Of a DNA stretch of 64,000 nt, positions 3,580 through 39,637 are shown piece by piece (the first letter of the stretch is position 1; the number at the start of each line of letters is the position of its first letter). Below the pieces are notes generated by a model, which saw only the letters and a program-made list of their open reading frames with translations, was not told the origin of the DNA and did not search any database. Source of the DNA: an uncultured Candidatus Saccharibacteria bacterium (GTDB lineage: Bacteria > Patescibacteriota > Minisyncoccia > Phycocordibacterales > Phycocordibacteraceae); NCBI GenBank assembly GCA_964546795.1, contig CAZJKG010000001.1, forward strand, positions 61,690 to 125,689, written 5' to 3'. Position numbers and translations under genes: made by a program.

Positions 3580-3671
3580 GTGCGCACCACAAGAGTACTT
3601 CCATTTTCCTAAGCCCGAGTACGGGCAAGGAAAATTGGTCGCTCCGGGCCGCTAGGCCAAGTCCTACTACC
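3580..3671 (+). repeat. intergenic repeat family A, copy 1 (~90 nt, hairpin-containing); lies between convergent rpmA and rplI
   Basis: GTGCGCACCACAAGAGTACTTCCATTTTCCTAAGCCCGAGTACGGGCAAGGAAAATTGGTCGCTCCGGGCCGCTAGGCCAAGTCCTACTACC. A reverse-complement copy is at 37585-37674 and a core copy at 39595-39626. Confidence 0.7.
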
Positions 3672-3695
3672 TGTTTCTGGTTTTTTTGGCTCTCA

Positions 3696-4142
3696 CTATT
3701 CTGCTTCAACCGTAGTAATAGAAAACTTTCCGAACGTATCGCCAGCGGCGACCGGGATATCGAACGTACCAAGTTCTTTGATGGGTTTTTCAAGCTTGAT
3801 CGCATCTTCGGACAGGTCTATATGCGCTTGTTCTTTTGCCGCCGCCCGTATCTCTGTCTCCCCTACCGCGTCGTACAAATGACCCTTTTCGTTTGCCTTT
3901 GCCCTGATAACGATGTGTGCGGATGCGAGAGAGGCAATATTCTGCGCGAGCAAAGCAGCGTTGAGGGTTGCGCGGTCCTGTATGCGCTTACGACGCAATT
4001 CGGCCTCCTGCATCGCCGTCGGAGTCGCGGGAATGGCGAATTTCTTCGGAATGAGGTGATTGAGGGCGTAGCCGTCGGCCAACGTAAGCGTGTCATGTGC
4101 GCGTCCAACCCCTTTTATGTCCTTGAGTAATACGATTTTCAT
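3696..4142 (-). CDS. rplI: 50S ribosomal protein L9
   Basis: MKIVLLKDIKGVG......GYA.N.LIP...A.PAT is the L9 N-domain; length 148 aa. Confidence 0.85.
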   Translation of the reverse strand: MKIVLLKDIKGVGRAHDTLTLADGYALNHLIPKKFAIPATPTAMQEAELRRKRIQDRATLNAALLAQNIASLASAHIVIRAKANEKGHLYDAVGETEIRAAAKEQAHIDLSEDAIKLEKPIKELGTFDIPVAAGDTFGKFSITTVEAE

Positions 4143-4158
4143 GTGAACGCATCCTACT

Positions 4159-5448
4159 CTATTGCGTATCCGCAGTCAAAAACGTGGTTGCCCTCAACAT
4201 TTGCGGATCGCGTTTGGCGGCCGTATCCGCCGCGGTGAACGGCACGATAATATCCGGCGTGATGCCGTTACCCATGATCCAGTTCCCCGCTGGCGTTATC
4301 CAACGCGCAACGGTGACTTTGAGCGATCCTTCGTCGAGATCCATCAATGTCTGCACGGAACCCTTGCCAAATGATTTCGTACCGATCAGCGTCGCGACGC
4401 GAGCGTCCTGCAAGGCACCCGCAAAGATTTCGGAAGCGGAAGCGGAACCTCCGTCAATGAGCACGACGATCTTCGTCCCTGCAGGCACATCCCCGTAACC
4501 AAAACTGGTATGCACGTTGCTTGGCTCTTTTCCGCCGAAATCCTCGGTCACAATGTCTGCGCCCCTCGGAAGAAAATGACTCGCGATGGCAACCGCTGCG
4601 TCAAGATAGCCGCCCGGGTTCCCGCGCAGGTCTACGATGAGCTTTTTTGAGCCGGAAGTTCTGAATCGCGCAAGGGCTTGATCAAACAGATTTGCGGAAT
4701 CGGACGTGAATTCATACAGTGCGATATGATAGACGCCACTTTTCATGTCGAGACCGTCTTCGGTCTGCGGTATCCGAATAGTGTCGCGAACAACTTTGAT
4801 ATCCAGAGAAACAGCATCTCTGATAATGGTGAGATCAACGGTCGTGCCAATGGGGCCGCGTATCTTATTGACCGCCTTATCAATGGAGATGCCATCGGTC
4901 GATGTCCCGTCAATGGCGATTATCTGATCGCCCGGCTTGATGCCAGCTTTTTCAGCAGGCGTACCTTTAAGAGGCGAGACGACGGTCAGGACGTTGTTTT
5001 TTACGCCGATTTCCATGCCGACGCCCGCGAAACTTCCCGATATATTTTCAGCAAATGCCTTCGCCTCCGTAGGCGGAAAGAAAACAGTATACGGGTCATC
5101 ATACGAAGCGGCGAGGCCTTCTATCGCGCCGAAAATCTGTTCTTTCTTCGAAGGAAGTGTTGAGGAGGCGTGCGTGACAATGTAGTTCGCTTCAAGCGCA
5201 TTCCATGCTTTCCAAAAGTTGGTGAGATCGGCGTTCGGATCCGGCGTCGCATCGAGACCGTCACCGACGAACGGAATGCGCGTCGTAATTGCCGTAGCGG
5301 AATTGCCGCCGCCCACGGAAAATCCGGCGACAAAGGCAAATGCCGCCACGAGCGCGAACGAGACGCCGCGAGCCGCGATAGTACGCCCGGATGTACGCAC
5401 GTTCCCCAATTCCATTCCGCACAGTGTAACACGAAAGGAGCGCATCAT
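4159..5448 (-). CDS. ctpA: carboxyl-terminal processing protease (S41 family, PDZ-containing)
   Basis: N-terminal signal/anchor, a PDZ segment, and S41 motifs GG.SASASEIFAGALQD and GTKSFGKGSVQ. Confidence 0.8.
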   Translation of the reverse strand: MMRSFRVTLCGMELGNVRTSGRTIAARGVSFALVAAFAFVAGFSVGGGNSATAITTRIPFVGDGLDATPDPNADLTNFWKAWNALEANYIVTHASSTLPSKKEQIFGAIEGLAASYDDPYTVFFPPTEAKAFAENISGSFAGVGMEIGVKNNVLTVVSPLKGTPAEKAGIKPGDQIIAIDGTSTDGISIDKAVNKIRGPIGTTVDLTIIRDAVSLDIKVVRDTIRIPQTEDGLDMKSGVYHIALYEFTSDSANLFDQALARFRTSGSKKLIVDLRGNPGGYLDAAVAIASHFLPRGADIVTEDFGGKEPSNVHTSFGYGDVPAGTKIVVLIDGGSASASEIFAGALQDARVATLIGTKSFGKGSVQTLMDLDEGSLKVTVARWITPAGNWIMGNGITPDIIVPFTAADTAAKRDPQMLRATTFLTADTQ

Positions 5449-5462
5449 GATATTCTAGACAC

Positions 5463-6383
5463 ATGATATTCCGGCATGACTATCTGGACGGCGTGTGGGT
5501 TGATCTGGAACAGCCAAGCGAGGACGAAATACGGGACGTTGCGCATGAATTCTCCATCGGCGGACGTCTTGAGGCGGAATTGCTCTCCCCTACTCCCGCA
5601 TCGCTCGTGACGAGCGATGCTAACGCGGCACTCCTGGTGCTTCATTTCCCGACATCCGGCACGGGCAGCGGCGAAACAAAGAGTCAGGAGATCGATTTCA
5701 TCGTCGGAAAAAACTTTATTCTGACGGTGCGGTACGAAGTTATAGCGCCCTTGTACCATTTGAAGAAATTGCTTGAAACACAACAGCTTGTCACGGGGAA
5801 AACGCCCATTACGACCGATGTCCTTTTGGAAATTCTCTTTGCGCATCTCTATACCTCGATGCGCGACCACACGAACCATATTGCCGACAATCTCGTGCGC
5901 GTCGAGAAAGAGATGTTTGACGGCCATGAACGGACGACGGTACGCTCCATCTCGAATATCAGCCGAGAATTCCTCCACGTGGAAGCCGCGCTCGCAACCC
6001 AGGAAGAATCCCTATCCCATTTCCTGGACGTTCTCAAGGAATATGCATTCTTTGACGATTCTTTCGCGCTGCGCGCCCAGCGTATCAAAACAGAACGCGC
6101 GAATGTCGCACGAATAGTAAAAACACATCGTGCCGTCGCGGGCGAGTTACGCGAGACGAATGTCGCGCTCCTTGAGGCGCGCCAGAATGAGATTATGAAG
6201 ACCCTTACGATCATCACTGTTATCATGCTTCCGCTTGAGGTCATAGCCGTTACCTTTGGCATACACGCGCAAGGCGCTCCATTTGAAAACGATTTGAATG
6301 CATTTTGGATTATCATCATGATTATGATCGGCATTGCTGGCAGCATGATACTTTTTTTCATGAAAAAACGCTGGATCTTCTGA
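5463..6383 (+). CDS. CorA-family divalent cation transporter homologue with non-canonical GMN motif (GIH)
   Basis: The C-terminal two TM helices align to CorA (KTLTIITVIMLPL..IA..FG...). At the YGMNF position the sequence reads FGIHA. Confidence 0.6.
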   Translation: MIFRHDYLDGVWVDLEQPSEDEIRDVAHEFSIGGRLEAELLSPTPASLVTSDANAALLVLHFPTSGTGSGETKSQEIDFIVGKNFILTVRYEVIAPLYHLKKLLETQQLVTGKTPITTDVLLEILFAHLYTSMRDHTNHIADNLVRVEKEMFDGHERTTVRSISNISREFLHVEAALATQEESLSHFLDVLKEYAFFDDSFALRAQRIKTERANVARIVKTHRAVAGELRETNVALLEARQNEIMKTLTIITVIMLPLEVIAVTFGIHAQGAPFENDLNAFWIIIMIMIGIAGSMILFFMKKRWIF

Positions 6384-6386
6384 CGC

Positions 6387-7856
6387 ATGAAGTGGCTCAC
6401 CCGCATATTCAGGAAACGAAAGGATGCCGCCGCGCAGGACCGGCCTGCGCAAATATTCCTCACCAATACGCTCTCGGGCGCGAAAGAACTCTTCATATCG
6501 CAGAGACCGAGGATCGCATCGATGTATACGTGCGGGCCAACGGTCTACAGTCAGCAGCATATCGGCAATCTGCGGCCCGGAGTTTTCTCGGATACGCTCG
6601 CGCGAGCGCTCGCACATGCCGGCTATCGCGTGCGACGCGTCATCAACATCACGGACGTCGGCCATCTGGTCGGCGATGGGGACCTTGGCGAGGACAAGAT
6701 AGAGATGGGAGCAAAGCGCGAGGGCCTCTCCGCCTCCGCCATTGCCGAGCGATACACGACATTATTCCTTACCGACCTTGCGGAGCTCAATATTGATACA
6801 AAAGACATCTTCTTTCCCAAGGCAAGCGACTATATTAAAGAACAAATTTCGCTCGCGCGCACGCTTGAAGAAAAAGGGTTCGCCTATCGTATTGACGACG
6901 GTCTTTATTTCGACACAAGCCGTTTCCACGGCTACGGCAAGTTGGGCGGGCTCTCCGGTGCACAACTCAAAGCCGGAGCGCGCATTGAAACGAATCCCCA
7001 GAAACGCCATCAGGCCGACTTCGCACTGTGGAAAAAAACACCTCCTGATGTGAGTCGAATGCAGGAATGGGATTCGCCGTGGGGGCCCGGATTTCCCGGC
7101 TGGAATTTGGAGTGTTCTGCGATGGCGCGCGCATTGCTCGGCATTGAGATAGACATTCATACCGGAGGCGAGGATCTCGCGCAGATACACCATAACAACG
7201 AGATCGCTCAGTCGGAAGCTGCATCGGGTCGGCCGTTTTCCCGCTACTGGATGCACAATGCATTTCTTACTATGGAGGGTGAAAAAATATCGAAATCGAT
7301 AGGCAATGTCGTCTACCTCTCCACTATCATTGAGAAGGGATTCCATCCTCTTTCGCTCCGCTATTTTTTTCTCCAAGCGCACTATCGCACTCCCCTCTCC
7401 TTCTCGTGGAACGCCATTGCGGGCGCCGCAAGCGCGCTTGAACGGCTCTGGAAGCTCTCGCGCGAACTCGCGGAGGAATCCAAGCGAATGGAAGAATCTT
7501 CTGAAGCGCGCAGTCGCTTCCTTGCAGCGATGCGCGACGACCTCGCAACTCCGCAAGCACTCGGCATCCTCTGGGACTCCTTGAAGAGCGAGGATTACAC
7601 TCCCGAAGAAAAATGGTGTCTTCTTGAAGATGCTGAAGCGCATTTCGGTCTGTCGCTCCTGCATCCGCCCGCCGCAGGCGCCCTGGCAACATCGGACATT
7701 CCGGAAAAGATCCGCGAAATGCTTGCGCGGCGGGAAGCAGCGCGCGCGGCACTGGATTTTAAGGAGGCGGACCGCATCCGAACCGATATTGAGAACAGTG
7801 GATATCATGTGGATGACGGACCGGAAGGGCCGGTGTTGATTCGGACGACTCTTTGA
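6387..7856 (+). CDS. cysS: cysteinyl-tRNA synthetase
   Basis: MYTCGPTVYSQQHIGNLR (HIGH-like), KISKS (KMSKS), zinc-binding Cys, and a C-terminal anticodon-binding domain. The first ~25 aa are uncertain. Confidence 0.85.
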   Translation: MKWLTRIFRKRKDAAAQDRPAQIFLTNTLSGAKELFISQRPRIASMYTCGPTVYSQQHIGNLRPGVFSDTLARALAHAGYRVRRVINITDVGHLVGDGDLGEDKIEMGAKREGLSASAIAERYTTLFLTDLAELNIDTKDIFFPKASDYIKEQISLARTLEEKGFAYRIDDGLYFDTSRFHGYGKLGGLSGAQLKAGARIETNPQKRHQADFALWKKTPPDVSRMQEWDSPWGPGFPGWNLECSAMARALLGIEIDIHTGGEDLAQIHHNNEIAQSEAASGRPFSRYWMHNAFLTMEGEKISKSIGNVVYLSTIIEKGFHPLSLRYFFLQAHYRTPLSFSWNAIAGAASALERLWKLSRELAEESKRMEESSEARSRFLAAMRDDLATPQALGILWDSLKSEDYTPEEKWCLLEDAEAHFGLSLLHPPAAGALATSDIPEKIREMLARREAARAALDFKEADRIRTDIENSGYHVDDGPEGPVLIRTTL

Positions 7857-8004
7857 TACCCGACACACGGAAACGGACATAATTTTGCAAAAATAAGCCC
7901 TTTTTGGCACACGCGCCTCTTTAACTTTATACGAAATAAGACCATTGAAACGCGCTGTCTTCTGCGCGATGCCGTTTCGTGTGACGGGTGATATAATCGG
8001 CGGG

Positions 8005-9360
8005 ATGGCTGCCGACCGCGTCCCACCCCAATCCCTTGATTCAGAGCGCGCCCTCCTTGGCGCTCTTCTGCTGAAACCCGACGCCATCCATGATGTTTCC
8101 GATATTATACGGGCTGATTCTTTCTACGCGGAAAAGCACCGGCTGATATTCGGCGCGATGCATGAACTCGCCGAACGCGGCGAGCCGATAGATCTTCTTT
8201 CATTGTCCGAACGTATGCAGAATCAGGGATTGCTTGAACGGTCCGGCGGGCGCAGCTATTTGGCTGAGCTTGCCGGTTCGGCACCGGCGCCCGGCAACTT
8301 CTCCCACTATGCCGAACTCGTCTCGCGCAAATTCCTGATGCGCTCCCTCATTGAAGCCGCATACACCATTACCGAGTCCGCGTATGACGATGCGCGCGAA
8401 ACGATGGAAGTACTCGATGAGGCCGAGAAGAGCGTCTATGCCATCGGCAATGCTTCTGCGGCACATAAATTTACCGCTATCGGCGACAAGATCCACGAAG
8501 CATGGGACCGTATTGAGGCGCTTTCCAAAAAAGAAAGTGGGATTCGCGGCGTCCCTTCCGGCTTCCCTGCCCTTGATAACCTCCTCTCTGGCTTTCATCC
8601 CTCCGATCTCGTCATCATCGCCGCGCGCCCGTCGATGGGCAAGACCTCGCTTGCGCTTGATATTGCTCGGAACGCCGCCGTGCGTCATAACGTTCCTGTT
8701 GGCATCTTCTCGCTTGAGATGAGCTCGGAACAGCTTATTGACCGCATGCTCGCCGCGGAGTCGTTCGTCAATTCATGGAAACTCCGCACCGGTCAAGTGA
8801 GGGAGGAGGACGATTTCAATCGCATACGGGACGCCCTGGAATCGCTTTCGAAAGCACCTATTTATATAGACGACAAACCGGGCAACAATATCCTCGCAAT
8901 GCGCGCTGTTGCCAGACGGTTGAAGCGCGAACGCGGCATCGGGCTTCTCATCGTGGACTATCTGCAGCTCATGGCACCGACCTCCACCAAATCATCCGAT
9001 TCCCTCGTCCAGCAGGTGACCGAGATATCACGTTCTTTGAAGTCACTTGCGCGCGAGCTTGCCGTGCCGGTCATCGCGCTCTCACAGCTCTCGCGCGCGG
9101 TTGAACAGCGAGGCGGCAAGCCCCGCTTGAGCGATCTGCGCGATTCTGGAAGCATTGAGCAGGATGCGGACGTCGTGATGTTTATTCATCGCGACGACAA
9201 GCGCAATCCCGAAAGTGACCGGCCGAACATCGCGGAAATACTTATTGAGAAACATCGCAACGGACCGACCGGCAAGACCGAACTGTATTTTGATGAAAAG
9301 CGCGCGACGTTCCAGCCGATGGACACGGCCGGCTACGGCGAACTCGCCGCGGAATTTTAA
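8005..9360 (+). CDS. dnaB: replicative DNA helicase DnaB
   Basis: N-terminal DnaB domain (SERALLGALLL.PDAI) and Walker A ARPSMGKTSLALDIA, with RecA-like motifs. Start taken at the internal ATG (codon 21). Confidence 0.85.
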   Translation: MAADRVPPQSLDSERALLGALLLKPDAIHDVSDIIRADSFYAEKHRLIFGAMHELAERGEPIDLLSLSERMQNQGLLERSGGRSYLAELAGSAPAPGNFSHYAELVSRKFLMRSLIEAAYTITESAYDDARETMEVLDEAEKSVYAIGNASAAHKFTAIGDKIHEAWDRIEALSKKESGIRGVPSGFPALDNLLSGFHPSDLVIIAARPSMGKTSLALDIARNAAVRHNVPVGIFSLEMSSEQLIDRMLAAESFVNSWKLRTGQVREEDDFNRIRDALESLSKAPIYIDDKPGNNILAMRAVARRLKRERGIGLLIVDYLQLMAPTSTKSSDSLVQQVTEISRSLKSLARELAVPVIALSQLSRAVEQRGGKPRLSDLRDSGSIEQDADVVMFIHRDDKRNPESDRPNIAEILIEKHRNGPTGKTELYFDEKRATFQPMDTAGYGELAAEF

Positions 9361-9376
9361 TCATGTTAGCAGCACA

Positions 9377-9524
9377 GCGAATACGCAATGTTGGAAACCC
9401 TCGGAGCCGACGCAGCATGGTAATTGCAGCGCCGAAGAGAGGTTGCGCTGCAATTTGCGTCGGAGAGAGTGAATGCGGCCTGTCGCAGGACAGGCCGACA
9501 TGTGTTCCAACATTGCGTATTCGC
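9377..9524. repeat. highly structured inverted-repeat element between dnaB and recR (20-bp perfect outer stem plus nested hairpins)
   Basis: GCGAATACGCAATGTTGGAA ... TTCCAACATTGCGTATTCGC enclose CCGACGCA/TGCGTCGG, ATTGCAGCGC/GCGCTGCAAT and CGGCCTG/CAGGCCG stems. Confidence 0.6.
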
Positions 9525-9531
9525 AAACGTC

Positions 9532-10134: not shown

Positions 10135-10136
10135 TC

Positions 10137-10739: not shown

Positions 10740-12088
10740 CGGCCTTGGACGAACGTCAGTGCCTTACCTTTCTTGTCCGCTCGGCCGGTGCGGCCAATGC
10801 GGTGAATGTAGTCCTCATACGTTGACGGAAGGTCGTAGTTAATGACGTGCGAGACAGCCGGAATATCAAGGCCACGTGCGGCAACATCGGTCGCTACGAG
10901 CACGCTCACCTTCCCTGCCTTAAAGGCCTCTAGGGCGCGTATGCGCGCGCCATGCGTCTTGTTGCCGTGGATGCTTTCCGAGTGAATATGGAGGCGGGAA
11001 AGTGCCTTAGCGAGCTTCTCCACGCCGAACTTGGTGCGGCCGAATACGAGCACGCGGCTGAATTCGCGGTCCTTAAGCATCTCGGAGAGTACCTCAAACT
11101 TGTCCTTCCCGCGCGGAATGCGCACGACGTCCTGGTCAATGCTGCTCGGAGTATCGCGCGTCTTCACCGATATGACGACCGGGCTTGAAAGGAAGTCACC
11201 GATGAGCCGCTCAATGTCTCTCGACATCGTCGCGGAAAAGAAAAGTGTGTGACGCTCTTTGTTCATCTTCCCGAGTATCATGCGCATATCGTCAATGAAA
11301 CCCATATCAAGCATGCGGTCCGCCTCGTCAAGGACGACTGTGCCGAAACCGGAAAGGTCAAGCGCACGGCGTTCCATCAGGTCCTTCAGGCGCCCGGGAG
11401 TGCCGATGACGAATGCCGGATTGTGCCGGAGCTGAGAAATCTGCGGACCGATGTTCGCACCACCTACCGCGACCATGCCGCGGAACCCGAGACCTCTCGC
11501 GAAGCCAGCAAGCTCCTTTTCTATTTGCACCGCAAGCTCACGAGTGGGTGCCATGATGAGCACACGGTCGCCTTTCTGCTTCATGACCTTGTCAATAAGC
11601 GGGATGAGGAATGCTGCCGTCTTCCCCGTCCCGGTCGCGGCAAGGCCGACGACGTCCTGGCCGAGGAGCGCATGCGGAATGGCTTTGTCCTGAATAGGTG
11701 TCGGGGACACATAGTGTCGCACTTCAATATTCTTCTTCAGATGCGCATTAATATCGAAATCGGAAAATGTATGTTCGGGAACGAACACCGGCTCTGAAGT
11801 CGTCACAACCGTCTTGTTCATGAACTTTGATATTTCGGCTTCCGTCTCGCCGAAAGAGCCGAAACCGCGACCTCGTCCGTGCGCCTGCCTGCCGGCAGGC
11901 AGGCGCCCGCCTCCGAAGCGACTCGGCCCACCAAAACCGCCGCGCTGTGGCGGACGTGACGAATACGAACCTTGCCGGCCGGCAGGCGGGCGCTCACCAC
12001 CTTGTGGGCTGCGTGAATGTCCTCCAGACCGCCCGGTTCCATGCGAACTTCCACCTCCTGATTGATGATTCCATCTTCCTACTTGCAT
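10736..12088 (-). CDS. DEAD-box ATP-dependent RNA helicase with N-terminal Gly/Arg-rich region
   Basis: Q-motif/PTPIQ, Walker A GTGKT, DEAD (VLDEADRMLDMGF), SAT and HRIGRTGR motifs. About 85 aa of RGG/GRG repeats precede the core. An alternative start at MNKTV (near 11821) is possible. Confidence 0.85.
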   Translation of the reverse strand: MQVGRWNHQSGGGSSHGTGRSGGHSRSPQGGERPPAGRQGSYSSRPPQRGGFGGPSRFGGGRLPAGRQAHGRGRGFGSFGETEAEISKFMNKTVVTTSEPVFVPEHTFSDFDINAHLKKNIEVRHYVSPTPIQDKAIPHALLGQDVVGLAATGTGKTAAFLIPLIDKVMKQKGDRVLIMAPTRELAVQIEKELAGFARGLGFRGMVAVGGANIGPQISQLRHNPAFVIGTPGRLKDLMERRALDLSGFGTVVLDEADRMLDMGFIDDMRMILGKMNKERHTLFFSATMSRDIERLIGDFLSSPVVISVKTRDTPSSIDQDVVRIPRGKDKFEVLSEMLKDREFSRVLVFGRTKFGVEKLAKALSRLHIHSESIHGNKTHGARIRALEAFKAGKVSVLVATDVAARGLDIPAVSHVINYDLPSTYEDYIHRIGRTGRADKKGKALTFVQGR

Positions 12089-12126
12089 TGTATTTTTAAA
12101 TTAATGTATAGATCGAACGGAGCTTC

Positions 12127-12233
12127 GGAAAAAGCTAGAAGATGCGAGGCACGGGTAAGGCAATCTCTGCAGGCGTACAAAAGTACGACGGAAGAAATTA
12201 CCGGGACCCATAACGAAGCATCTTGAGCTTTTT
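12127..12233 (-). promoter_or_regulatory. long imperfect inverted repeat in the leader of the DEAD-box helicase / downstream of rplU
   Basis: GGAAAAAGCTAGAAGATGCG ... GCATCTTGAGCTTTTT (2 mismatches) separated by ~70 nt. Confidence 0.3.
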
Positions 12234-12238
12234 ACAAG

Positions 12239-12556: not shown

Positions 12557-12638
12557 AGTCCGTGTAATGTAGCACTTTCCTATATAAAAGACAAGGATGC
12601 GGAACGGGTTCCGCATCCTTTGAAGATCAATACTCACT

Positions 12639-12974: not shown

Positions 12975-12997
12975 TACCGGAAAAGATTCTCGGAGAA

Positions 12998-14062: not shown

Positions 14063-14181
14063 GGGTGTAGTATACAGTGAACGGCAAATAGGTTGTAGCG
14101 AATAGTTTATGGCAATTCAAATCCAGGAACATGGTATTCTGTATCTACTATTAGCTATACGCTATAAACTATAAGCTGTTT

Positions 14182-14634: not shown

Positions 14635-14681
14635 CAGAAATGGTGTTTAATATTGGTCGGACTTAACGGGAGACCACTACC

Positions 14682-20698: not shown

Positions 20699-20738
20699 CT
20701 ATCCAAACCACAATGCGACCGCATTGTGATTTGGATAG
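20699..20738. repeat. palindrome family B, copy 1 (19-bp arms, 1 mismatch)
   Basis: CTATCCAAACCACAATGCG-AC-CGCATTGTGATTTGGATAG. Related copy at 63709-63752. Confidence 0.6.
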
Positions 20739-28497: not shown

Positions 28498-28555
28498 TCC
28501 CCAATAATACTCGCCCCGTTAGAGATAGGAAGTGCTTGAGATATGTGTATAAATA

Positions 28556-30676: not shown

Positions 30677-30682
30677 ACCGTC

Positions 30683-31927: not shown

Positions 31928-32041
31928 GCTCTGCAGTATACGCCCACCAAACCGGCTCGGCAAAACAAATTTCGCAGCCATCCACAATTTGTCGCTATAG
32001 CGACAAGTTGTGGATGGCTGCCCTTTTGAGTGGATACGCGC

Positions 32042-33175
32042 CTAGTGGACAATCTTGAAGATGTCGTGCGCCGTGACGACGACCATAAGAAGGACAAGAA
32101 AGACGAAGCTGATTGCATTAGCCGCGCGAGTGACGTTTACATCGATGGGGCGGCGGATGACGCTTTCAATGAGCACAAAGAGGAGCCGGCCGCCATCAAG
32201 CGCGGGAATGGGAATGAGATTGATGAGCGCAAGATTGATGGAAATAATCGCCATGATGGAGAGGAGATATTCAAATCCTTGTACCGATGCGGAACCGACG
32301 ACGCCCGCGATGCCGATGGGGCCTGCCACCTGCGAAAGGTCAGCTGAAAATGTGAAGACGCTGTAGAAAAAATGCCAGAGTCCGACTGCGGTGAGTTCGG
32401 TTGCGCTCCAAGTGAGCCGTGTGCCCTCTATAAGAGCCGCGCCGAAAGAGAGCGGTACAACGCCGATGGTAGCCACTTCAACTCCAAGCGCGTAGCGGCT
32501 TGGGTCGGCACTCGCAACGCCCGCTGCGGGCGTTGCGCTAATACTACGAACGTTCTCAGCATGCTTCACCATGAGAATGATTTCATTTCCGCCGCTTTGT
32601 GCAATAAATTCTGAAAAACTTTGAGGGTCCACAGCATGCCAGTCCCCCGCCGCATCATGCGCACTAAGTATTGAGTCGCCCGGTAGAAGTCCTGCAAGAG
32701 CCGCGGGCGAGCCGGGGAGCACGTTCGCGACCGCAAGTTCTGCACTACGAGCGTTTTGAATTTCATCCTGAGACAGCGCACGGGGCGTTCCGATGACGAG
32801 CGCGCCGGTGATAAGCACATAAGCAAAAAGGAGATTCATCGCGACACCGGCAATGAGCACAAACGCCTGAAGGATGCGCGGGCGAGCGGAAAACGAGCGT
32901 GGATCCACCCCTCCGCCTGCCTGCGCAGACAGACCATCCTCGCCGTATATCTTCACGAAACCGCCAAAAGGCAGCCAGTTGAGGGTGTACAGTGTCTCGC
33001 CCTTTTTTGCGATGACGGCCACGCGCGGCGGATAGCCGAGCCCGAATTCATCAACACGCATTCCCGAGAGTTTCGCTGCGACGAAATGTCCCAATTCATG
33101 TACTACGATAAGCGCAACGATAACGACGATAAAAATGAAAATAGTCACGAAGCGTATTATAGCAGAGCAATGAAT
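32042..33175 (-). CDS. rseP: RIP metalloprotease RseP (site-2 protease)
   Basis: HELGHF zinc motif, PDZ domain, LDG motif, multiple TM helices. The true start is unclear: the track ORF reaches 33256 but runs through an inverted-repeat element. Confidence 0.75.
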   Translation of the reverse strand: MHCSAIIRFVTIFIFIVVIVALIVVHELGHFVAAKLSGMRVDEFGLGYPPRVAVIAKKGETLYTLNWLPFGGFVKIYGEDGLSAQAGGGVDPRSFSARPRILQAFVLIAGVAMNLLFAYVLITGALVIGTPRALSQDEIQNARSAELAVANVLPGSPAALAGLLPGDSILSAHDAAGDWHAVDPQSFSEFIAQSGGNEIILMVKHAENVRSISATPAAGVASADPSRYALGVEVATIGVVPLSFGAALIEGTRLTWSATELTAVGLWHFFYSVFTFSADLSQVAGPIGIAGVVGSASVQGFEYLLSIMAIISINLALINLIPIPALDGGRLLFVLIESVIRRPIDVNVTRAANAISFVFLVLLMVVVTAHDIFKIVH

Positions 33176-33270
33176 CAGGGTATGCTGTTTTGGAACCGCA
33201 TAATTTCCTGCTGAAAATTTGCTCTGGCTCGCGCCGCCGCGCTCCGCACGTTCCAAAACAGCATACCCTG
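33176..33270. repeat. 21-bp perfect inverted repeat flanking a ~53-nt loop, between rseP and frr
   Basis: CAGGGTATGCTGTTTTGGAAC ... GTTCCAAAACAGCATACCCTG. Confidence 0.6.
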
Positions 33271-33285
33271 TATTCGTGCTCTATG

Positions 33286-33837
33286 TTATTGCGCGATCTC
33301 GGTCTCTTTCTTCTCAAGCATTTTCGCGAGAGCATCGTTGCCAGCATCAATGTATTTCTGCGCTTCGGCTTTCAGGCGCATCAGCTCGTCTTTCCCCATG
33401 CCGCCTTCTTTCGCGGACCCATCAAGCGCTTTGAGCGCATCGGTGCGATGCGAGCGCAGCGTCACTTTCGCCTGTTCGGTTTTATCGCCTGCGATCTTTG
33501 AGAGTTGCTCGCGTCGCTCGCTAGTCAGCGCCGGAAAGGTAACGCGCAATCCCTGATCATCAGTCGCGATGCCGATGCCGAGATCAGCGTCGGTAATTCC
33601 CTTCTCTATTGTTTTCAAAAGCGTCATATCCCACGGAATGATGCGTATCGTACGAGCATCTTCAACTGAAACGGACGCAAGTTCGCGGAGCGGCGTGCGT
33701 GTGCCATAGGCCTCGGGCTTCACTGCATCAAGCAAGGTCGGTGTCGCACGGCCGGTACGGACTCCCGAGAGCTCGCGCGAGAGCCATTCCTCGGTCTCTT
33801 TGATACTCGCTTTTAATTTTGAGAAATCGTATGCCAT
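33286..33837 (-). CDS. frr: ribosome recycling factor
   Basis: Full-length RRF pattern (LSGVRTGRA.P.LLD.V ... IPWD). Confidence 0.9.
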   Translation of the reverse strand: MAYDFSKLKASIKETEEWLSRELSGVRTGRATPTLLDAVKPEAYGTRTPLRELASVSVEDARTIRIIPWDMTLLKTIEKGITDADLGIGIATDDQGLRVTFPALTSERREQLSKIAGDKTEQAKVTLRSHRTDALKALDGSAKEGGMGKDELMRLKAEAQKYIDAGNDALAKMLEKKETEIAQ

Positions 33838-33866
33838 AGGATAGGTGATAGGTTGTAGGGAGTAGT

Positions 33867-34586
33867 TTATAGTAAATTCTTTGGTATGACGAGTGAGAGA
33901 TGTTCCAGGATCATGCGCACCGGCGCGCTGCGGTCATAGAGATAATTCCGCAAAATTGCAATGTCTGAAAGAAGGTCGGCGATAGCTCCGCTATCGCCGA
34001 CCTTCTTCAGCCGCCGATAAGCCGCGACCTCTACGCCGTTCATTATCGCTATCGCTTCGTCGCGATGTTCCCGCCGTTCCTCCTCATCCTTCCCTGTCGT
34101 AATCTTTTTAATTATTGCGCTGCGCTTTTCCTTACTCGCTTTCATAAACTCTTCCGCTTCCTCCGGAATGTGGGGCATCGGAAGTCCTACATTGGCGTCG
34201 AGTACGCCCACGCGCGATCGTAGTGTCGGCAAGATTCCTCCGAATGTTGGTATCACGAGAAAAATGTAAGTACCAGAAGGCGGCTCTTCAAAAAGTTTCA
34301 GAAGTGCATTCTGTGCCTCGTGATACGCACGGTTCGCGCTGATAATAAGCACCTTATGCTCACCCCTGAAAGGCGCTCCCGCGGCGAACTCCGTTACTCG
34401 CCGTGCATCTTCAACCGAAAGCAGCCCGTAGCGCAAAACGACGATGTCGGGATTCCCTTTTACTTTCATTTTGAGCTCCCGCTCCGCCCACGCCTGCGCT
34501 ATCTCAATCCCCTTTTCTGCTTCCGCCTCAATAACGAACGCATGATGCCGCATGTGTCGATTATAGCCCGCATCTGCTAGTTCCAA
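33867..34586 (-). CDS. holB: DNA polymerase III delta'-like subunit (short form)
   Basis: NALLKLFEEPP motif, and an AAA+ lid-like region. Confidence 0.55.
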   Translation of the reverse strand: MELADAGYNRHMRHHAFVIEAEAEKGIEIAQAWAERELKMKVKGNPDIVVLRYGLLSVEDARRVTEFAAGAPFRGEHKVLIISANRAYHEAQNALLKLFEEPPSGTYIFLVIPTFGGILPTLRSRVGVLDANVGLPMPHIPEEAEEFMKASKEKRSAIIKKITTGKDEEERREHRDEAIAIMNGVEVAAYRRLKKVGDSGAIADLLSDIAILRNYLYDRSAPVRMILEHLSLVIPKNLL

Positions 34587-34681
34587 GCGATATTGACAGA
34601 TTCATATTGGTATGCTAAGGTAGCTATAGAAAAAGAAGTGTGTCTAAATGAGACAGTTAATCCCAGAAAAGGAGGGGCGTA

Positions 34682-35023
34682 ATGAGTATTGGGAAATTAA
34701 TCTTGGCGTTTGGTTGTTCGGCTCTGTTTGGTGGTCTGTTGTTTGGTTGCGATGGAAACACGGATCCGTGGGCGCGAGTTCGTGCCGAACCGACTATCAC
34801 TGATTGGTCACCCGAATCAACCATTACGACCGAGGGAGAGGTCAAGAAAGTGTTAGCGCTCAACGTTGGACGTGTGCTCGTCAAACGCGACGGTCATCGG
34901 GATTTGTTCTCCGTGTTGGTCATTCCCTTTAGGAAAATTCCAGTTGGATCGAAGGTCGAAGTTGTCGTGGTCGAGGATAGGCAGAGCATCGGGACGATCT
35001 CGGTATTCTTTGTCGTAAAGTGA
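34682..35023 (+). CDS. hypothetical lipoprotein
   Basis: Signal peptide with lipobox LLFGC. Confidence 0.35.
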   Translation: MSIGKLILAFGCSALFGGLLFGCDGNTDPWARVRAEPTITDWSPESTITTEGEVKKVLALNVGRVLVKRDGHRDLFSVLVIPFRKIPVGSKVEVVVVEDRQSIGTISVFFVVK

Positions 35024-35158
35024 AGACAAATCTCTGAGGGCTCCTGGCGGAAACGCTTGGGGTCCTCTTCTTTTTTACTACCGAGCGAGAGAGTGGAAAG
35101 AGAGATTCTGAGCTCTCTTTCCCGAACGAGCGAAGGGAGCAAGCCCTGCTCTGAGGGC

Positions 35159-36184
35159 TTATTGCTTCGCTAAAATGCTTTTCTGATACGTATCCAGGTG
35201 CTTCAGCGCGATGCCGGTGCCGCGCGCGACACAGTAGTAGGGGTCTGATGCGATCTTCGCTATCACACCGGTGCGGCGGTACACAAGCTCCGACATTTGT
35301 CGCAATTGCGAGGAACCGCCGGTCAGAATAATGCCGTTATCAATAATATCGGCCGCGAGCTCGGGCGGGGTTTCCTGCAGCACTTTGCGTATCGCTTGCG
35401 TCATCTCGCGCAATTCCCTTCCCATCGCTTGCACCAAGTCATTGGTCGAGAGTTCAATAGTACGTGGCAAGCCGTTCATGAGGTCGCGGCCTTTGACCGC
35501 TAGAGAAAGTTCTTCATTCATCGGCACCGCGGCTCCTATCTTTATCTTCACTTCTTCCGCGGTCTTGTCGCCTATCGCGAGATTGTGCTGTTTCTTCACG
35601 TAGTCAATGACTGCCCTATCCAGGCGGTCGCCCGCACACTTCACGCTCGTAGAGGCGACGATGCCGCCGAGCGATATCACGGCAACGTCTATCGTGCCGC
35701 CGCCGATGTCCACAACCATGCGCCCCATCGGTTCGTGAATGGGAATGCCCGCGCCGATGGCCGCAAGTATCGGCTCCTTCACCACATACGCGTTCTTCGC
35801 ACCGGCCTTCATTGCCGCTTCAATAACCGCGCGTTTCTCGGTGGACGTCACTCCCGCGGGAACTGAGACGAGGACGGTCGGTTTGAACGGATTCCGGCCG
35901 AGCGCTTTTTTCATGAAATAACGCAACATCGCTTCGGTCACGCGATAGTTTGCGATAACGCCATCTTTCATCGGGCGATACGCGATGATGTCGTCCGGTG
36001 TGCGACCGATCATCTGCTTCGCCTCGGTACCGATGGCGAGGATAGAGTTACCGCCTCGTTTGCTGTGCGTTTTGCCTACGGCGACGACCGATGGTTCGTT
36101 CAGAACGACGCCCTTGCCGGGCACAAAGACGAGCACATTGGTGGTGCCGAGGTCAATGCCGAGCTTTGGAGAAAAGAAAGACAT
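35159..36184 (-). CDS. MreB/Mbl-like actin homologue (second copy)
   Basis: GIDLGTTNVLVFV.GKGVVLNEPSVVAV is an MreB-family sequence distinct from the 29624-30676 copy. Confidence 0.8.
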   Translation of the reverse strand: MSFFSPKLGIDLGTTNVLVFVPGKGVVLNEPSVVAVGKTHSKRGGNSILAIGTEAKQMIGRTPDDIIAYRPMKDGVIANYRVTEAMLRYFMKKALGRNPFKPTVLVSVPAGVTSTEKRAVIEAAMKAGAKNAYVVKEPILAAIGAGIPIHEPMGRMVVDIGGGTIDVAVISLGGIVASTSVKCAGDRLDRAVIDYVKKQHNLAIGDKTAEEVKIKIGAAVPMNEELSLAVKGRDLMNGLPRTIELSTNDLVQAMGRELREMTQAIRKVLQETPPELAADIIDNGIILTGGSSQLRQMSELVYRRTGVIAKIASDPYYCVARGTGIALKHLDTYQKSILAKQ

Positions 36185-36251
36185 TGTCTATATAGTATCG
36201 CTCTCGGTGCCCTCGTGCAAAGCGTAAGAACAAAATGGTACGATACCCAGA

Positions 36252-37562
36252 ATGCAAGGGGAAATGAATTTCATCGTTGAGGGTGGACGGAAGCTTTCCG
36301 GAAGAGTTGAGACGAGCCGCTCCAAGAATGGTGCGGTTGCCCTTTTGGCCGCCTCGCTTCTAAATCGCGGCCGGACGACCTTGGAGCATGTGCCGAAAAT
36401 CGAAGAAGTGAATCGCCTTATTGAAGTGCTCCGCTCGATTGGCGTCAAAGTTGAATGGCACGGAACGAATGTCGTCATAGAGCCACCGAAAACATTTTCT
36501 CTCAAGACAATCGACCGCGCAGCCGCCGCAAAAACGCGCAGCATTTTGATGTTCATCGGCCCCTTGCTCCACTTTTTTAGAAAATTTGAATTGCCGCAGT
36601 CGGGCGGCTGCACGCTCGGACTTCGCAGCGTGCGTCCGCACCTCATGGCGCTCGAGAAATTCGGTGTCGCGATAGAAACGCTCTCCGACAGGTATCACAT
36701 TGCCCACACCAAACTTACTCCGGCAGAAGTTATTCTCTACGAATCAAGCGATACCGCGACCATAAACGCGCTTCTGGCGGCCGCATGCATCCCGGGCACG
36801 TCCGTCATCAAATACGCTTCGGCGAATTATCAGGTGCAGGAATGTTCTGGTTTTCTGCGCGTCCTCGGCGTTTCCATTGACGGCATTGGTACGACGACGC
36901 TCCGAGTGAAAGGCGTCGGCAATATACGCAAAAATATTTCCTATAGCGTGGCGGAGGACCCGACCGATGCGATGTTCTTTATCGCGGCGGCAGCCGTGAC
37001 CGGCTCCGCCATCACGATTACGGCCGCGCCCATAGAATTTCTCGAAGTAGAACTGTTAATCCTGGGGAAAATGGGCTTGAAATACACATTATCAAAACGG
37101 AGAGTATCGGAAAACGGCATCACAAAACTCGCCGATATTTCTGTAAAACGTTCCACACTCATCGCGTTCCCTGAAAAAATTCATGCGCGGCCCTACCCGG
37201 GTCTTAATATCGATAATCTTCCCTTCTTCGCCGTTATCGCTACGCAGGCGCAGGGCACCACACTCATTCACGATTGGGTATATGAGAAGCGAGCGATTTA
37301 CTATACCGAACTCGATCGGCTCGGCGCCACGACTATTCTCCATGACCCCCACCGTATTTCTATCGAAGGACGGAAAGATCTCAAGGCCGCGGAAGTCATT
37401 TGCCCGCCTGCACTAAGACCCGCGACCATCATCCTCGTCGCGATGCTCGCGGCAAAAGGACGTTCCATGCTGCGTAATGTCTATAGCATTAACCGCGGCT
37501 ACGAGGATATCGTGACCCGCCTCACGCACCTCGGCGCCTCCGTCAAGGTGCATATGGGCTAA
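36252..37562 (+). CDS. murA: UDP-N-acetylglucosamine 1-carboxyvinyltransferase
   Basis: EPSP-synthase-fold protein of ~430 aa, with an N-terminal K.NG...LLAASLL segment and an overall MurA pattern. Confidence 0.85.
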   Translation: MQGEMNFIVEGGRKLSGRVETSRSKNGAVALLAASLLNRGRTTLEHVPKIEEVNRLIEVLRSIGVKVEWHGTNVVIEPPKTFSLKTIDRAAAAKTRSILMFIGPLLHFFRKFELPQSGGCTLGLRSVRPHLMALEKFGVAIETLSDRYHIAHTKLTPAEVILYESSDTATINALLAAACIPGTSVIKYASANYQVQECSGFLRVLGVSIDGIGTTTLRVKGVGNIRKNISYSVAEDPTDAMFFIAAAAVTGSAITITAAPIEFLEVELLILGKMGLKYTLSKRRVSENGITKLADISVKRSTLIAFPEKIHARPYPGLNIDNLPFFAVIATQAQGTTLIHDWVYEKRAIYYTELDRLGATTILHDPHRISIEGRKDLKAAEVICPPALRPATIILVAMLAAKGRSMLRNVYSINRGYEDIVTRLTHLGASVKVHMG

Positions 37563-37584
37563 GAGAATGGGCGAAGCAGAAAAA

Positions 37585-37674
37585 GATAGTTGGACTTGGC
37601 CTCTCGAACCGGAGCGACCAATTTTTCTTGCCTGTACTCAGGATTAGAAAAATGGAAGTGCTCTTGTGGTGCGC
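37585..37674 (-). repeat. intergenic repeat family A, copy 2 (reverse orientation)
   Basis: Its reverse complement aligns to 3580-3671 with about 80% identity, including a compensatory GCCCG/CGGGC -> CCTG/CAGG stem change. Confidence 0.7.
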
Positions 37675-37717
37675 TAGCTTTTTCTGCTTTGCTCGTGAAC
37701 GGCTATACTGTAAAGGT

Positions 37718-38011
37718 ATGAAATCCATCCGTGACATTCTCCCCGATATCAGGAAAAAGGCGGCCGCCGCGCCGAAAGGAAGGAAACGGCAGACGGAACG
37801 CGGCGAGCTGATGCGTTTCTTCCTCCGCCACTTAAATCATTCCCGCGCGCACGATGGTCTCGCGCCCATGACTATGGCGCATCTGGGCACCGTCCTTGAG
37901 AAAATACCCACGCAAGACCTCTACTACCTCAAGAGCGTGTGCAGCCAGGCAAAGAATTTCGGCAAAAAATTCTGGTGGGAATTGGATCCAACAAAACATC
38001 TGTCCCGCTGA
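37718..38011 (+). CDS. hypothetical protein (97 aa)
   Basis: ATG preceded by AAAGG and a TATACT box. Basic, no motif. The track ORF upstream of this ATG is a translation of repeat A. Confidence 0.3.
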   Translation: MKSIRDILPDIRKKAAAAPKGRKRQTERGELMRFFLRHLNHSRAHDGLAPMTMAHLGTVLEKIPTQDLYYLKSVCSQAKNFGKKFWWELDPTKHLSR

Positions 38012-38171
38012 TTTTTTGTTATACTGCAGCACCTGCCCGGTAGGACAACATAGCATCATGTCTACACTCCAAAAGTAATTTGTGCGACGCACGATAACGA
38101 TGCATTATGTACGCTATGAACTCATCAAGACGTATGACACGGGAAGTAATGCCATGTTGTACTGACCGGGC

Positions 38172-39578
38172 ATGAAAGAAATCGTGCAAGATGGCACGCC
38201 AGTGTTGCGCGATATCGCATTGCCCGTGCCCGAGGATCTCTTCGGCACCCCGGAGCTCGTGCATCTCATCAAGGACATGGAGGAGGCGCTCGACAAAGAG
38301 ACCGAGGGCGTCGCACTCGCCGCGCCGCAAATAGGAGTGTCGTACCGCGTCTTCATCGTAAGGAAAGACAGAACCCGTCCTTCGCCAAAGGCTACGGAGG
38401 GCACAGCACTTCCCCTACACGCGCCGCGAAGCGGCGCGTCGGGCAAACTTTTAGCGGAGTCGGAAGTTTTAGCCCCCGAAATAGAGGTCTTTATCAATCC
38501 CGAGATTGTAAAGACCTCCCGCAAGCGAGCAAAGACAGACGAAGGATGTCTCTCGGTTCGCGGCGTGTACGGCACGACCAACCGGCACGAACGCGTTACC
38601 ATCCGCGCCCGTCGTCCTGACGGCTCTAAACTAACGCGCGGCGCCGGCGGACTCTTGGCGCAAATATTCGAACATGAAATAGACCATTTGAACGGCATCC
38701 TCTTTATTGACCATGCCGAACATCTCATTCACATAAAGCGTCAATTGGAGCATCGCTTCGCCTATTTCGGTACGCCCCATGTCGCGAGCGATACGCTTGC
38801 CATTCTCATCGAACGCGGGTTTGTACCTTCCGTCGTTGTAACTTCTCCGGACGCGCCGAAAGGTCGGGGTCTTGCTCTTGCACCGTCCGAAACGAAAAAG
38901 CTCGCGCTTGTACACGGTATCCCCGTCATGACTCCGGAAAAATTAGACGCAAATGCAATCGCTGAGATAAATACATTCGCATGCGACTATGCCGTCGTCG
39001 TCGCCTACGGCAAGATATTTCCCGAAGAGCTTATAACCGCATTCCCCCGAGGCGTGGTAAATGTCCATTATTCACTTCTGCCGAAATATCGCGGAGCGAC
39101 ACCGCTTGAGACGGCTCTCCTTTCGGGCGACACGGAGACCGGCGTGACTATACAAGAAATGGTGCGTGAACTTGATGCGGGCGACATCATTGCGCAGAAG
39201 ACCACCGAAATTGCGCTGTTTGAGACCGCGCGCGAGCTGCGAGCGCGACTCATCGATATGGGAGCTTCCCTGCTTGCCGACACTCTCCCCGAATACGCAG
39301 CGGGGCGCATTGAGCCAGTTCCGCAAGACGCCTCCCGCGTCACGCGCACGAGGAAACTCAAAAAAGAAGACGGGCTTCTCTCACTTGATGCTCCTGCCGA
39401 AGTGAACTGGAACAAATACCGCGCATATGCCGACACTATCGGCACCTATTTCTTTGATCCGCCAATCGGCGGAGGTAAGCGAATTAAAATAACGGCGGCC
39501 TCATTTAAAAACGGGGTATTTGTCATCGAGCGCGTCATTCCCGAAGGTAAACGCGAGATGAACTACTCCGCGCGGTAA
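38172..39578 (+). CDS. bifunctional peptide deformylase / methionyl-tRNA formyltransferase fusion (Def-Fmt)
   Basis: The N-terminal half carries PDF motifs G.A.PQIG, EGCLSVRG and HEIDHLNG. The C-terminal half carries Fmt motifs (FGTP, HYSLLPKYRGATP, a C-terminal domain). It is a single uninterrupted 468-codon frame. Confidence 0.8.
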   Translation: MKEIVQDGTPVLRDIALPVPEDLFGTPELVHLIKDMEEALDKETEGVALAAPQIGVSYRVFIVRKDRTRPSPKATEGTALPLHAPRSGASGKLLAESEVLAPEIEVFINPEIVKTSRKRAKTDEGCLSVRGVYGTTNRHERVTIRARRPDGSKLTRGAGGLLAQIFEHEIDHLNGILFIDHAEHLIHIKRQLEHRFAYFGTPHVASDTLAILIERGFVPSVVVTSPDAPKGRGLALAPSETKKLALVHGIPVMTPEKLDANAIAEINTFACDYAVVVAYGKIFPEELITAFPRGVVNVHYSLLPKYRGATPLETALLSGDTETGVTIQEMVRELDAGDIIAQKTTEIALFETARELRARLIDMGASLLADTLPEYAAGRIEPVPQDASRVTRTRKLKKEDGLLSLDAPAEVNWNKYRAYADTIGTYFFDPPIGGGKRIKITAASFKNGVFVIERVIPEGKREMNYSAR

Positions 39579-39637
39579 ACCTTAAAAAAGGTAGCGCTCC
39601 GGGCCGCTAGGCCAAGTCCTACTACCTTTTTTAAGGT
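39579..39637 (+). terminator. 16-bp perfect-stem hairpin whose loop is the repeat-A core; bidirectional terminator between fmt and hpf
   Basis: ACCTTAAAAAAGGTAG-[CGCTCCGGGCCGCTAGGCCAAGTCCTA]-CTACCTTTTTTAAGGT, starting 1 nt after the fmt stop. Confidence 0.6.

Follow-up and report, generated by a model that had tools for sequence, protein, structure and literature searches.

Repeat Copies and Their Gene Context

The window analysed here is a 64,000-nt stretch of the genome of an uncultured Candidatus Saccharibacteria bacterium (GenBank assembly GCA_964546795.1, contig CAZJKG010000001.1, positions 61,690–125,689). It contains three copies of a palindromic repeat. Copy 1 occupies the whole of the 143-nt spacer between the convergent genes rpmA and rplI, the 155-nt spacer that separates murA from a small conserved open reading frame (ORF; 37718–38011) holds copy 2, and copy 3 is found between the convergent genes def-fmt and hpf. 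Based on Pfam matches, the neighbouring genes encode L27, a MurA-type enzyme, a Def-Fmt fusion and HPF, and L9 was confirmed via homologues; these contexts agree with an earlier reading of the sequence, hereafter the original prediction. Copies 1 and 2 form an inverted pair with 82% identity over 123 nt (3560–3682 versus 37574–37696), while copy 3 is 85% identical to copy 1 over 53 nt and 84% identical to copy 2 over 37 nt. The 24-nt core pattern of the repeat has three matches in the window and a 26-nt 5′ pattern has two, the expectation being 0.00 for each in 100 shuffles, which confirms the three copies at or near the positions first reported for them.

In the original prediction, the copies were treated as a single family of about 90 nt that follows gene 3′ ends and has a conserved RNA or DNA secondary structure. 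Copies 1 and 2 proved instead to be composites of two elements, designated A and B, with B inserted in the tip of A after GCGC (Table 1). Each of the three copies probably arose by insertion of small palindromic mobile elements, non-coding and non-autonomous, that belong to these two families and nest in one another. The elements are multi-copy across many Patescibacteria and polymorphic in their insertion; they occur nested, in tandem arrays, in both orientations and in frame within genes, and their stems carry double changes.

The borders of the B element in copy 1 are uncertain by 2–3 nt, because CGC is repeated at both junctions. In copy 2, the B sequence is identical to that in the related locus L021, where it is found at another site. 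Copy 3 has the simplest structure, with 16 perfect pairs (39579–39594/39622–39637) extending to 22 nt at 95% (39573–39594/39622–39643); as stated originally, the core of this copy sits in the loop of the perfect stem beside the fmt stop codon. The perfect stem begins right after that stop (39576–39578), which is itself contained in the extended left arm. As RNA, copy 3 is predicted to fold into a stem of about 22–25 bp with a 27-nt tip (−44.5 kcal/mol, z = −6.65). The z values of copy 2 are −5.95 on the plus strand and −3.39 on the minus strand, and the fold energy of copy 1 is unremarkable (z about −1) because its left arm has an 8-nt bulge. The ORF that ends at copy 3 (38172–39578, 468 aa) is a fusion of peptide deformylase and methionyl-tRNA formyltransferase (Pfam Pep_deformylase, residues 1–184; Formyl_trans_N, residues 199–370). 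This fusion is conserved in L021 and L024, and its last three codons and stop in the window lie in the copy 3 arm.

Table 1. Coordinates of the family A and family B elements in the window.
Feature	Position	Strand	Description
Copy 1	3553..3695	+	composite: family-A hairpin whose tip carries a nested family-B element
Sub-parts of copy 1	A-run and CCAG, 3553–3564; inner left arm, 3571–3583; right arm, 3668–3687	+	
Family-B element in copy 1	3584..3642	+	GCACCACAAGAGTACTTCCATTTTCC..GGAAAATTGGTCGC; holds hairpin GCCCG-AGTA-CGGGC
Family-A conserved core of copy 1	3641..3667	+	GCTCCGGGCCGCTAGGCCAAGTCC + TAC
Copy 2	37571..37692	-	composite A+B; outer arms 37571–37589 and 37674–37692
Family-B element in copy 2	37614..37672	-	hairpin CCTG-AGTA-CAGG
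Family-A core of copy 2	37589..37615	-	variant: GGTTCGAGAGGCC in apical mini-hairpin, AAC for TAC
Copy 3	39573..39643	+	plain short-form A; 22-nt arms; tip 39595–39621 (27 nt); core 39596–39619
Fourth, distant A-like palindrome	40716..40806	.	inner AGAAAAAG..CTTTTTCT; tip end ..GGTCTTAC; assigned by resemblance only

Insertion Polymorphism at Orthologous Sites

All three window sites vary among close relatives, occurring in short, long or empty form, which indicates that the elements moved recently. At the rplI/rpmA spacer, where the window carries A with B, L169 (L9 84% identical) has an 88-nt spacer with A in the same orientation and with the same stem but without B. In L170 (86%), A carries a different insert of about 60 nt in its mini-hairpin, and the 49-nt spacer of L168 (86%) retains a remnant in the opposite orientation. 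The spacers of L172 and L175 (78%) are 29 nt long and hairpin-free. The spacer between murA and the small ORF, filled by A with B in the window, contains only a short A in L024 and is reduced to 4 nt in L021 (MurA 88% identical). Between fmt and hpf, where the window holds A on the plus strand, L021 carries a long A with B on the minus strand and with a different stem, and L024 has an empty spacer of about 17 nt.

Since the empty sites of relatives lack a hairpin altogether, the whole hairpin is the added unit, not the tip alone. Mobility of a 27-nt tip into existing terminator hairpins was considered and rejected on the same grounds for the rplI/rpmA, murA and fmt/hpf sites. The empty spacers also indicate that these gene pairs work without the element. 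No clean junction could be defined from the comparison of filled and empty sites, the spacers being too diverged, and no clean target-site duplication was obtained in this way.

The insert of L170, located at about 1990–2050 in the mini-hairpin of A at the orthologous rplI/rpmA site, reads TTAGCATGCACCCCTTCGGGTAACCCTCGACAGGGTGACGAAGCGTCAGATGCGACATCG and is a third kind of tip-nesting element.

Distribution and Structure of Family A

The original prediction called for a search for further copies, and such copies turned out to be numerous. Family A was sought in one genome per GTDB species with the pattern GCTCCGGNNCGNNAGGCCAAGTCC. The exact 24-nt core was found at 47 loci, of which 44 are in metagenome-assembled genomes (MAGs) of Patescibacteria and three are evident chance matches in other phyla. 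The A-bearing MAGs are assigned to Kaiser-, Adler-, Harrison- and Sungbacteria, Paceibacteria and Minisyncoccia, and some are labelled Saccharibacteria or Peribacteria. Several copies are present in some genomes, and nhmmer detected eight extra copies in the same loci, all of them variants. No A core was found in viral contigs.

Family A is a hairpin of ~75–85 nt, the short form represented by copy 3 being its general form. It consists of a ~23-bp stem of locus-specific sequence and a conserved 27-nt tip, C-GCUCCGGGCCGCUAGGCCAAGUCC-UA, and in nearly all loci the core forms the tip of a long hairpin. The tip comprises an internal loop (5′ CGCUCCG, 3′ AAGUCYUA) and a 4-bp mini-hairpin, GGCC/GGCC. 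One pair of the mini-hairpin is flipped in L038 (C-G to G-C), and a longer hairpin takes its place in L014; thus, the conserved part of A is the internal loop.

The stem was examined in a gapless 73-column alignment of 44 copies, with shuffled alignments and a slid pairing partner as controls. Standard pairs make up 82.3% of the stem cells, compared with 56.1% after shuffling and 35–52% with the slid partner. Both sides have changed in 22 of the 23 pairs, and the covariation score is 0.59 versus 0.15. The arms pair in register over ~23 bp, i.e., family A has terminal inverted repeats. The arm consensus is roughly GCCGGCAAA-nnn-AAAAAG-ngn-GC ... TAC-ncn-CTTTTT-nnn-TTTGCCGGC, the outer ends tending to GCCGGCAAA...TTTGCCGGC. 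The inner 9–11 bp beside the tip are common to copies of one genome (AAAAAGTGTGC...TACCCACTTTTT in JBEKSI01; AAGAGRGC...TACYCTCTT in JACOWS01). In about 7 of 27 full-length copies TC is found on both flanks, often with CGCTC before and TCGCT after the element, and this dinucleotide may represent a 2-bp duplication at a preferred target.

Host DNA has been recruited into the arms in two cases. The outermost 8 bp of the L025 arms are made by native RarA codons, those for VLG, paired with an inverted copy inside the inserted segment. In the distant A-like palindrome of the window, the outer left arm is the 3′ end of the adjoining tRNA gene and the right arm is an inverted copy of that end; as DNA, this palindrome is predicted to fold at −34.8 kcal/mol (z = −8.05).

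Family B and Nesting

In copies 1 and 2, as well as in L021 and L088, GCGC and UCCGG of the A tip are separated by an additional ~59 nt. A scan of metagenomes with the 5′ part of this insert, CCACAAGAGNACTTCCATTTT, revealed its motif in at least 120 contigs, so the insert is an element in its own right. Among 86 distinct simple copies, mostly 55–60 nt long, the layout of family B is GC-ACCACAAGAGYACUUCC-AUUUUY-(variable hairpin)-RAAAAUYRGGUCGC; from start to end, the motif reads GC-ACCACAAGAGYACUUCCAUUUU...AAAAUUGGUCGC, with AAAAUYRGGUCGC conserved at the 3′ side. By inspection, the ends GCACC and GGU(C)GC can pair. Positions 3 and 13 covary, being A and U in most copies and G and C in 10, with about four exceptions.

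B elements are found singly, in head-to-tail arrays (L056, L093, L149, L156, L165) and nested in other B elements (L059, L089, L092, L097), and they frequently sit at the tips of locus-specific hairpins (L060, L069, L080, L087, L141). CGC is repeated at the junctions of B with A. In L107, L120 and L162, B adjoins the 3′ end of a tRNA and provides its ACCA.

The hairpin highlighted in the original prediction is the apical hairpin of B, and its change between copies 1 and 2 had been taken as compensatory on both strands. In the change from GCCCG/CGGGC to UCCUG/CAGGC, one such pair (C-G to U-A) stands, but copy 2 has lost the outermost pair (G-C to U.C). The next helix holds another compensated pair, CCAUUUUCC/GGAAAAUUGG having become CCAUUUUUC/GAAAAAUUGG. 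That the hairpin is kept by compensatory change is borne out by the wider set of B copies, in which folding of each sequence separately shows at least 18 different complementary stems of 4–5 bp with an RNUA loop, and by the doubly changed pairs of the A stem. RNAalifold, which had been suggested as a check, gave a weak consensus for the MAFFT alignment of B because of indels; the apical stems appear when the sequences are folded one by one. The B helices are nearly all Watson–Crick, with 9 G.U among 1006 predicted pairs.

A palindromic element, GCTCGCTCGGAAA..TTTCYCTCGCT, was repeatedly observed just 3′ of B (L061, L071, L084, L140, L161), and the motif CGCTCGC recurs at the outer flanks of A too.

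Copies Inside Protein-Coding Genes

The original prediction named copies inside coding regions as the observation that would speak against it; such copies were looked for and found. At 12 of the 47 exact-core loci, A lies inside a long ORF of a conserved protein, the host genes encoding RarA/MgsA, IF-2, an IscS/NifS-like enzyme, PrmC, MiaA, ArgRS and 3-methyladenine glycosylase (Mpg). Both orientations and all four stop-free frames are represented (ALRAARPSP, RSGPLGQV, GLGLAARSA and RTWPSGPER), and the same gene position may carry A in opposite orientations, as in IF-2 (L008 versus L043), RarA (L019 versus L025) and PrmC (L028 versus L044). Orthologues without A are shorter by 15–21 residues exactly at this point (RarA in L030, IF-2 in L023, IscS in L043). 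Escherichia coli RarA likewise lacks about 19 residues at the A site; the linker of E. coli IF-2 is of similar length, and the IF-2 insertion is visible only against the Patescibacteria orthologue. Family B is found in frame as well, in PrmC (L072), a YebC-like protein (L124) and a MiaB-like protein (L160), among others.

Where A separates tandem genes, the upstream stop codons fall outside the hairpin, so the flanking genes are not halves of a split gene. Nothing suggests that the element is removed at the RNA level.

RNA Signals or DNA Palindromes

The conserved hairpins invite an explanation at the level of RNA. The copies could be cis-acting signals at gene 3′ ends, namely bidirectional terminators or mRNA-stabilising stem-loops, with a tip that binds a Patescibacteria-specific protein and a distribution owed to function. 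Stop codons directly adjoin all three window copies, the tip is conserved between candidate classes, and terminator-like elements derived from miniature transposable elements with inverted repeats (MITEs), such as SPRITE, exist (PMC10969869). Furthermore, the left arm has an A5 run, and the right arm a T5 run, in 18 of 31 A copies from loci without a coding-gene copy, and both runs are missing from 9 of 12 copies in loci that hold one; this pattern is compatible with selection against terminator-like runs in genes together with some exaptation outside them. Among the non-Watson–Crick cells of the A stem, A.C outnumbers G.T by 51 to 19 in the orientation as written; wobble pairs would therefore form on the complementary strand, which reads GTAGGACTTGGCC, and this asymmetry hints at a single folding strand. 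However, the T-run lies within the stem and not after it, the tip is at least 27 nt long, and a scan for intrinsic terminators left copies 1 and 2 uncalled and reported only a 5-bp sub-hairpin for copy 3. The same convergent or tandem gene pairs of relatives have hairpin-free spacers of 4–29 nt. Intergenic A copies have no preferred orientation with respect to the adjacent genes (opposite/opposite, 10; same/same, 9; convergent, 4; divergent, 3, by crude ORF calls), about a quarter of the exact-core copies are within coding genes, and related copies are read there in both orientations and several frames. Lastly, G.U pairs are nearly absent, a scarcity more in keeping with a DNA palindrome than with a selected RNA fold. 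On these grounds, a primary role as a 3′-end RNA signal is unlikely, and the terminator or small-RNA function put up for testing in the original prediction is not supported. A terminator or stabiliser function is plausible as an added, exapted and secondary role of some intergenic copies.

It is considerably less probable still that A, B or both are multi-copy genes encoding a small, structured RNA or self-cleaving ribozyme. Conserved unpaired blocks (ACAAGAGUACUU in B, and the two strands of the internal loop in A) do stand beside variable, covarying helices, positions 3 and 13 of B covary, and multi-copy, tandem arrangement is typical of some ribozymes. Yet the Rfam scans by E-value of copy 1 and 12 B loci gave no relevant family over the elements, none even at E = 1, all known small ribozymes being included (the Rfam 15 families compared include hammerhead, twister, pistol, hatchet, HDV-like and tRNA). 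At gathering thresholds, the scan of the window returned only a group I intron and a tRNA, both elsewhere. The occurrence of the elements in both orientations and several frames inside coding genes and their helices without G.U pairs also tell against an RNA gene, and a kissing or pseudoknot interaction of the B junction GUAC with the hairpin loop, which covaries in L128 only, was dropped. Similarity to tRNA, suggested by a resemblance of the A tip to the D-arm of class II tRNAs and by the ACCA with which B starts, was rejected as well, there being no match to a tRNA model; most B copies do not abut tRNA 3′ ends. Chance similarity, low complexity or an assembly artefact is an explanation of negligible probability. 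The A core lies at a contig end in two loci (L016 and L019), as is often the case with repeats, but no matches are expected in shuffled sequence, and hundreds of contigs, assembled by different programs in unrelated studies, carry the same elements, in most cases in the interior of long contigs. Many of the matches come from groundwater series sampled at Hainich and Rifle.

The repeat is thus real and more widespread than the original prediction could have recognised, and there is good reason to replace a reading as a 3′-end RNA element by nested, selfish palindromic DNA for which a terminator-like role is possible but secondary. Several points weigh against mobile palindromic DNA. No transposase or partner gene was found: clustering of 945 neighbouring ORFs yielded only housekeeping families and no recurring neighbour. 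Target-site duplications amount to at most 2–3 nt and are seen in a subset only. The invariance of the A core is inflated by the exact pattern used as seed, and the genes of the related loci are crude longest-ORF calls. The A tip is tightly conserved between candidate classes and A.C cells are in excess; both would also fit selection on one folded strand, as in a role for RNA or single-stranded DNA (ssDNA). Taken together with the tip layout of repetitive extragenic palindromic (REP) elements described below, the A.C excess points weakly to one DNA strand as the substrate that folds and is not evidence of RNA function.

Candidate Mobilising Enzymes and Proposed Mechanism

For the transposase search, all ORFs of the collected loci and the window (1.14 Mb) were compared by phmmer with TnpA of IS608 (sequence of PDB 2a6m). 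The search returned one IS200-like Y1 transposase, in L016 (3944–4402; Pfam Y1_Tnp, 124 bits). It belongs to an IS200-like element (3899–4432) that encodes a 152-aa Y1_Tnp protein and has the hairpin CCTCGCAGC-TCT-GCTGCGGGG on both sides, and the MAG in question also carries A. As a mobiliser of A or B, this transposase was rejected, its end hairpins being unrelated to either family, and this too counts against a mobile origin. Between the inverted pair of A copies in L038 there are only ordinary genes. A parent autonomous insertion sequence (IS) with matching ends was not found in the 1.14 Mb of locus sequence; whole genomes were not searched.

Mobile palindromic elements of this kind would be mobilised in trans by an enzyme recognising the folded tip, the leading guess being a hairpin-specific ssDNA enzyme of the HUH/Y1 type. 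Quasipalindromes are known to be corrected, and spacers between inverted repeats to be inverted, by template switching. Because these processes are established, replication-associated template switching at the palindrome may maintain the perfect pairing of the arms, lengthen them into adjoining host DNA and flip the tips. In compact genomes, only insertions in tiny spacers or tolerant protein loops would survive, and intergenic copies with an A-run and a T-run may double as bidirectional terminators or mRNA 3′ stabilisers. A more specific proposal, which is rather doubtful, holds that the conserved tips are the recognition sites of a mobilisation system that inserts small hairpins specifically into the exposed tips of other DNA hairpins and then makes or lengthens the palindrome by copying flanking host DNA in inverted form. 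If true, this would be a mode of transposition undescribed for IS or MITE families, and one that reshapes essential IF-2, ArgRS and RarA in the reduced genomes of Patescibacteria.

Relation to Known Palindromic Elements

Literature searches by sequence and by topic (palindromic element, MITE, and candidate phyla radiation (CPR) or Patescibacteria) revealed nothing on A or B. Rickettsia palindromic elements (RPEs) are about 100–150 bp long and restricted to Rickettsia. Like A and B, they are short, palindromic and non-coding, have no known transposase, and are intergenic as well as unusually often in frame in housekeeping genes. According to the literature, these short palindromic repeats occur between and within unrelated genes, where each adds a peptide segment, and every RPE encodes a conserved peptide (PMC10969869). 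The two families described here differ in their length (55–85 nt) and Patescibacteria hosts, in the use of several frames and both orientations, in the variable arms around a conserved tip and in tip nesting. By behaviour, in different hosts, A and B would thus be an analogue of RPEs, functionally the closest one, and not a member of that group.

In tip architecture, REP elements are closest. They lie outside genes, are usually present in more than 100 copies per genome and form alternating pairs, and the gene of the REP-associated tyrosine transposase (RAYT) is flanked by two REPs. In their layout, a GT(A/G)G head precedes an imperfect palindrome whose middle is non-complementary (Nunvar et al., PMC2817692). 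The reverse complement of the A tip, GTAGGACTTGGCCTAGCGGCCCGGAGCGC, appears to follow this layout: the antisense of the main tip is GTAG with an imperfect palindrome, 29 nt in all, which is within the lengths tabulated in PMC2817692, and common variants read GTAA. REPs likewise keep their palindrome by complementary mutations. The REP-like unit of A differs in being single, at the tip of a long locus-specific hairpin, and also present in genes, the dozen exact-core loci within long ORFs (12 of 47) being at variance with an extragenic location. No RAYT gene flanked by inverted REPs was found in the 1.14 Mb searched by phmmer with IS608 TnpA.

A and B come nearest, in size, in nesting and in their place at gene boundaries, to bacterial MITEs that have regulatory side effects, such as Correia (Correia repeat enclosed element, CREE) of Neisseria and pneumococcal BOX, RUP and SPRITE. 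Correia, RUP and others derive from known IS families with defined target duplications. Families A (~75–85 nt) and B (~55–60 nt) resemble these MITEs in being small, non-coding and multi-copy, with inverted-repeat ends and a location at gene boundaries, and BOX, RUP and SPRITE also insert into each other, SPRITE being associated with sequences like rho-independent terminators (PMC10969869). The differences are that at most a TC dinucleotide is duplicated at A and B, and that nesting is specifically into hairpin tips. The remaining comparison is with the IS200/IS605 family and its miniature derivatives, the palindrome-associated transposable elements (PATEs), which depend for their mobility on ssDNA hairpins recognised by a Y1 HUH transposase and make no target-site duplication. 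A Y1 transposase gene is present in one A-carrying genome (L016), but IS200/IS605 elements have two separate subterminal hairpins instead of the one long palindrome of A, and the L016 element has end hairpins of its own, unrelated to A or B. Given the missing parent IS or RAYT, the location that is not confined to extragenic DNA, the different host phylum, the variable arms and the tip nesting, A and B are not a demonstrated member of the RPE, REP or MITE groups.

Patescibacteria (CPR) have very small genomes, to which A and B add a further, very small class of mobile DNA (55–85 nt) that is nested, has recently moved and is tolerated in frame within essential genes for translation and repair. 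Rickettsia provides the best-documented case of such behaviour. In annotation, the elements create spurious ORFs and shared peptides: as originally noted for the window, the ORFs 3524–3805 and 37628–38011 have the peptide RKMEVLLWCA in common, which is translated repeat. The elements also break assemblies, and their insertions of 15–25 residues could pass for lineage-specific protein features. As a bait sequence or for phylogenetic profiling, the conserved tips provide a handle for finding the enzyme that moves them.

Other Palindromes and Repeats in the Window

The tRNA gene adjoining the distant A-like palindrome (40443–40736; acceptor TCCGGGA/TCCCGGA) has an anticodon loop split by a group I intron at about 40480–40690 (Rfam RF00028, 81.6 bits, E = 3.5e-19), and this tRNA is not called by ARAGORN. 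Its 3′ end, TCCTGCTCCCGGAGC, is present as a 15-nt direct repeat (40722–40736 and 40910–40924) around a hairpin-rich segment of ~175 nt, and the duplication looks like the att-type mark that a very small integrated element would leave.

Other long locus-specific hairpins, with arms of 20–33 nt and structured tips of 53–108 nt, are located at 9377–9524, 11878–11993, 33164–33282 and 45867–46032, and these are probably further nested palindromic families. The tip of the hairpin at 33164–33282 contains CTCGCGCCGCCGCGCTCCG, which is also found beside B copies in L075, L079 and L081. Two related near-perfect palindromes (20699–20738 and 63709–63752; CTATCCA.A..ACAATGCG/CGCATTGT....TGGATAG) and a third one sharing ATCCACAAT (31974–32021) are another small palindromic repeat family. 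Finally, a 28-nt direct repeat with 86% identity, ATAGGTTGTAGSGARTAGTTTATRG, is present at 14088–14115 and 33848–33875.

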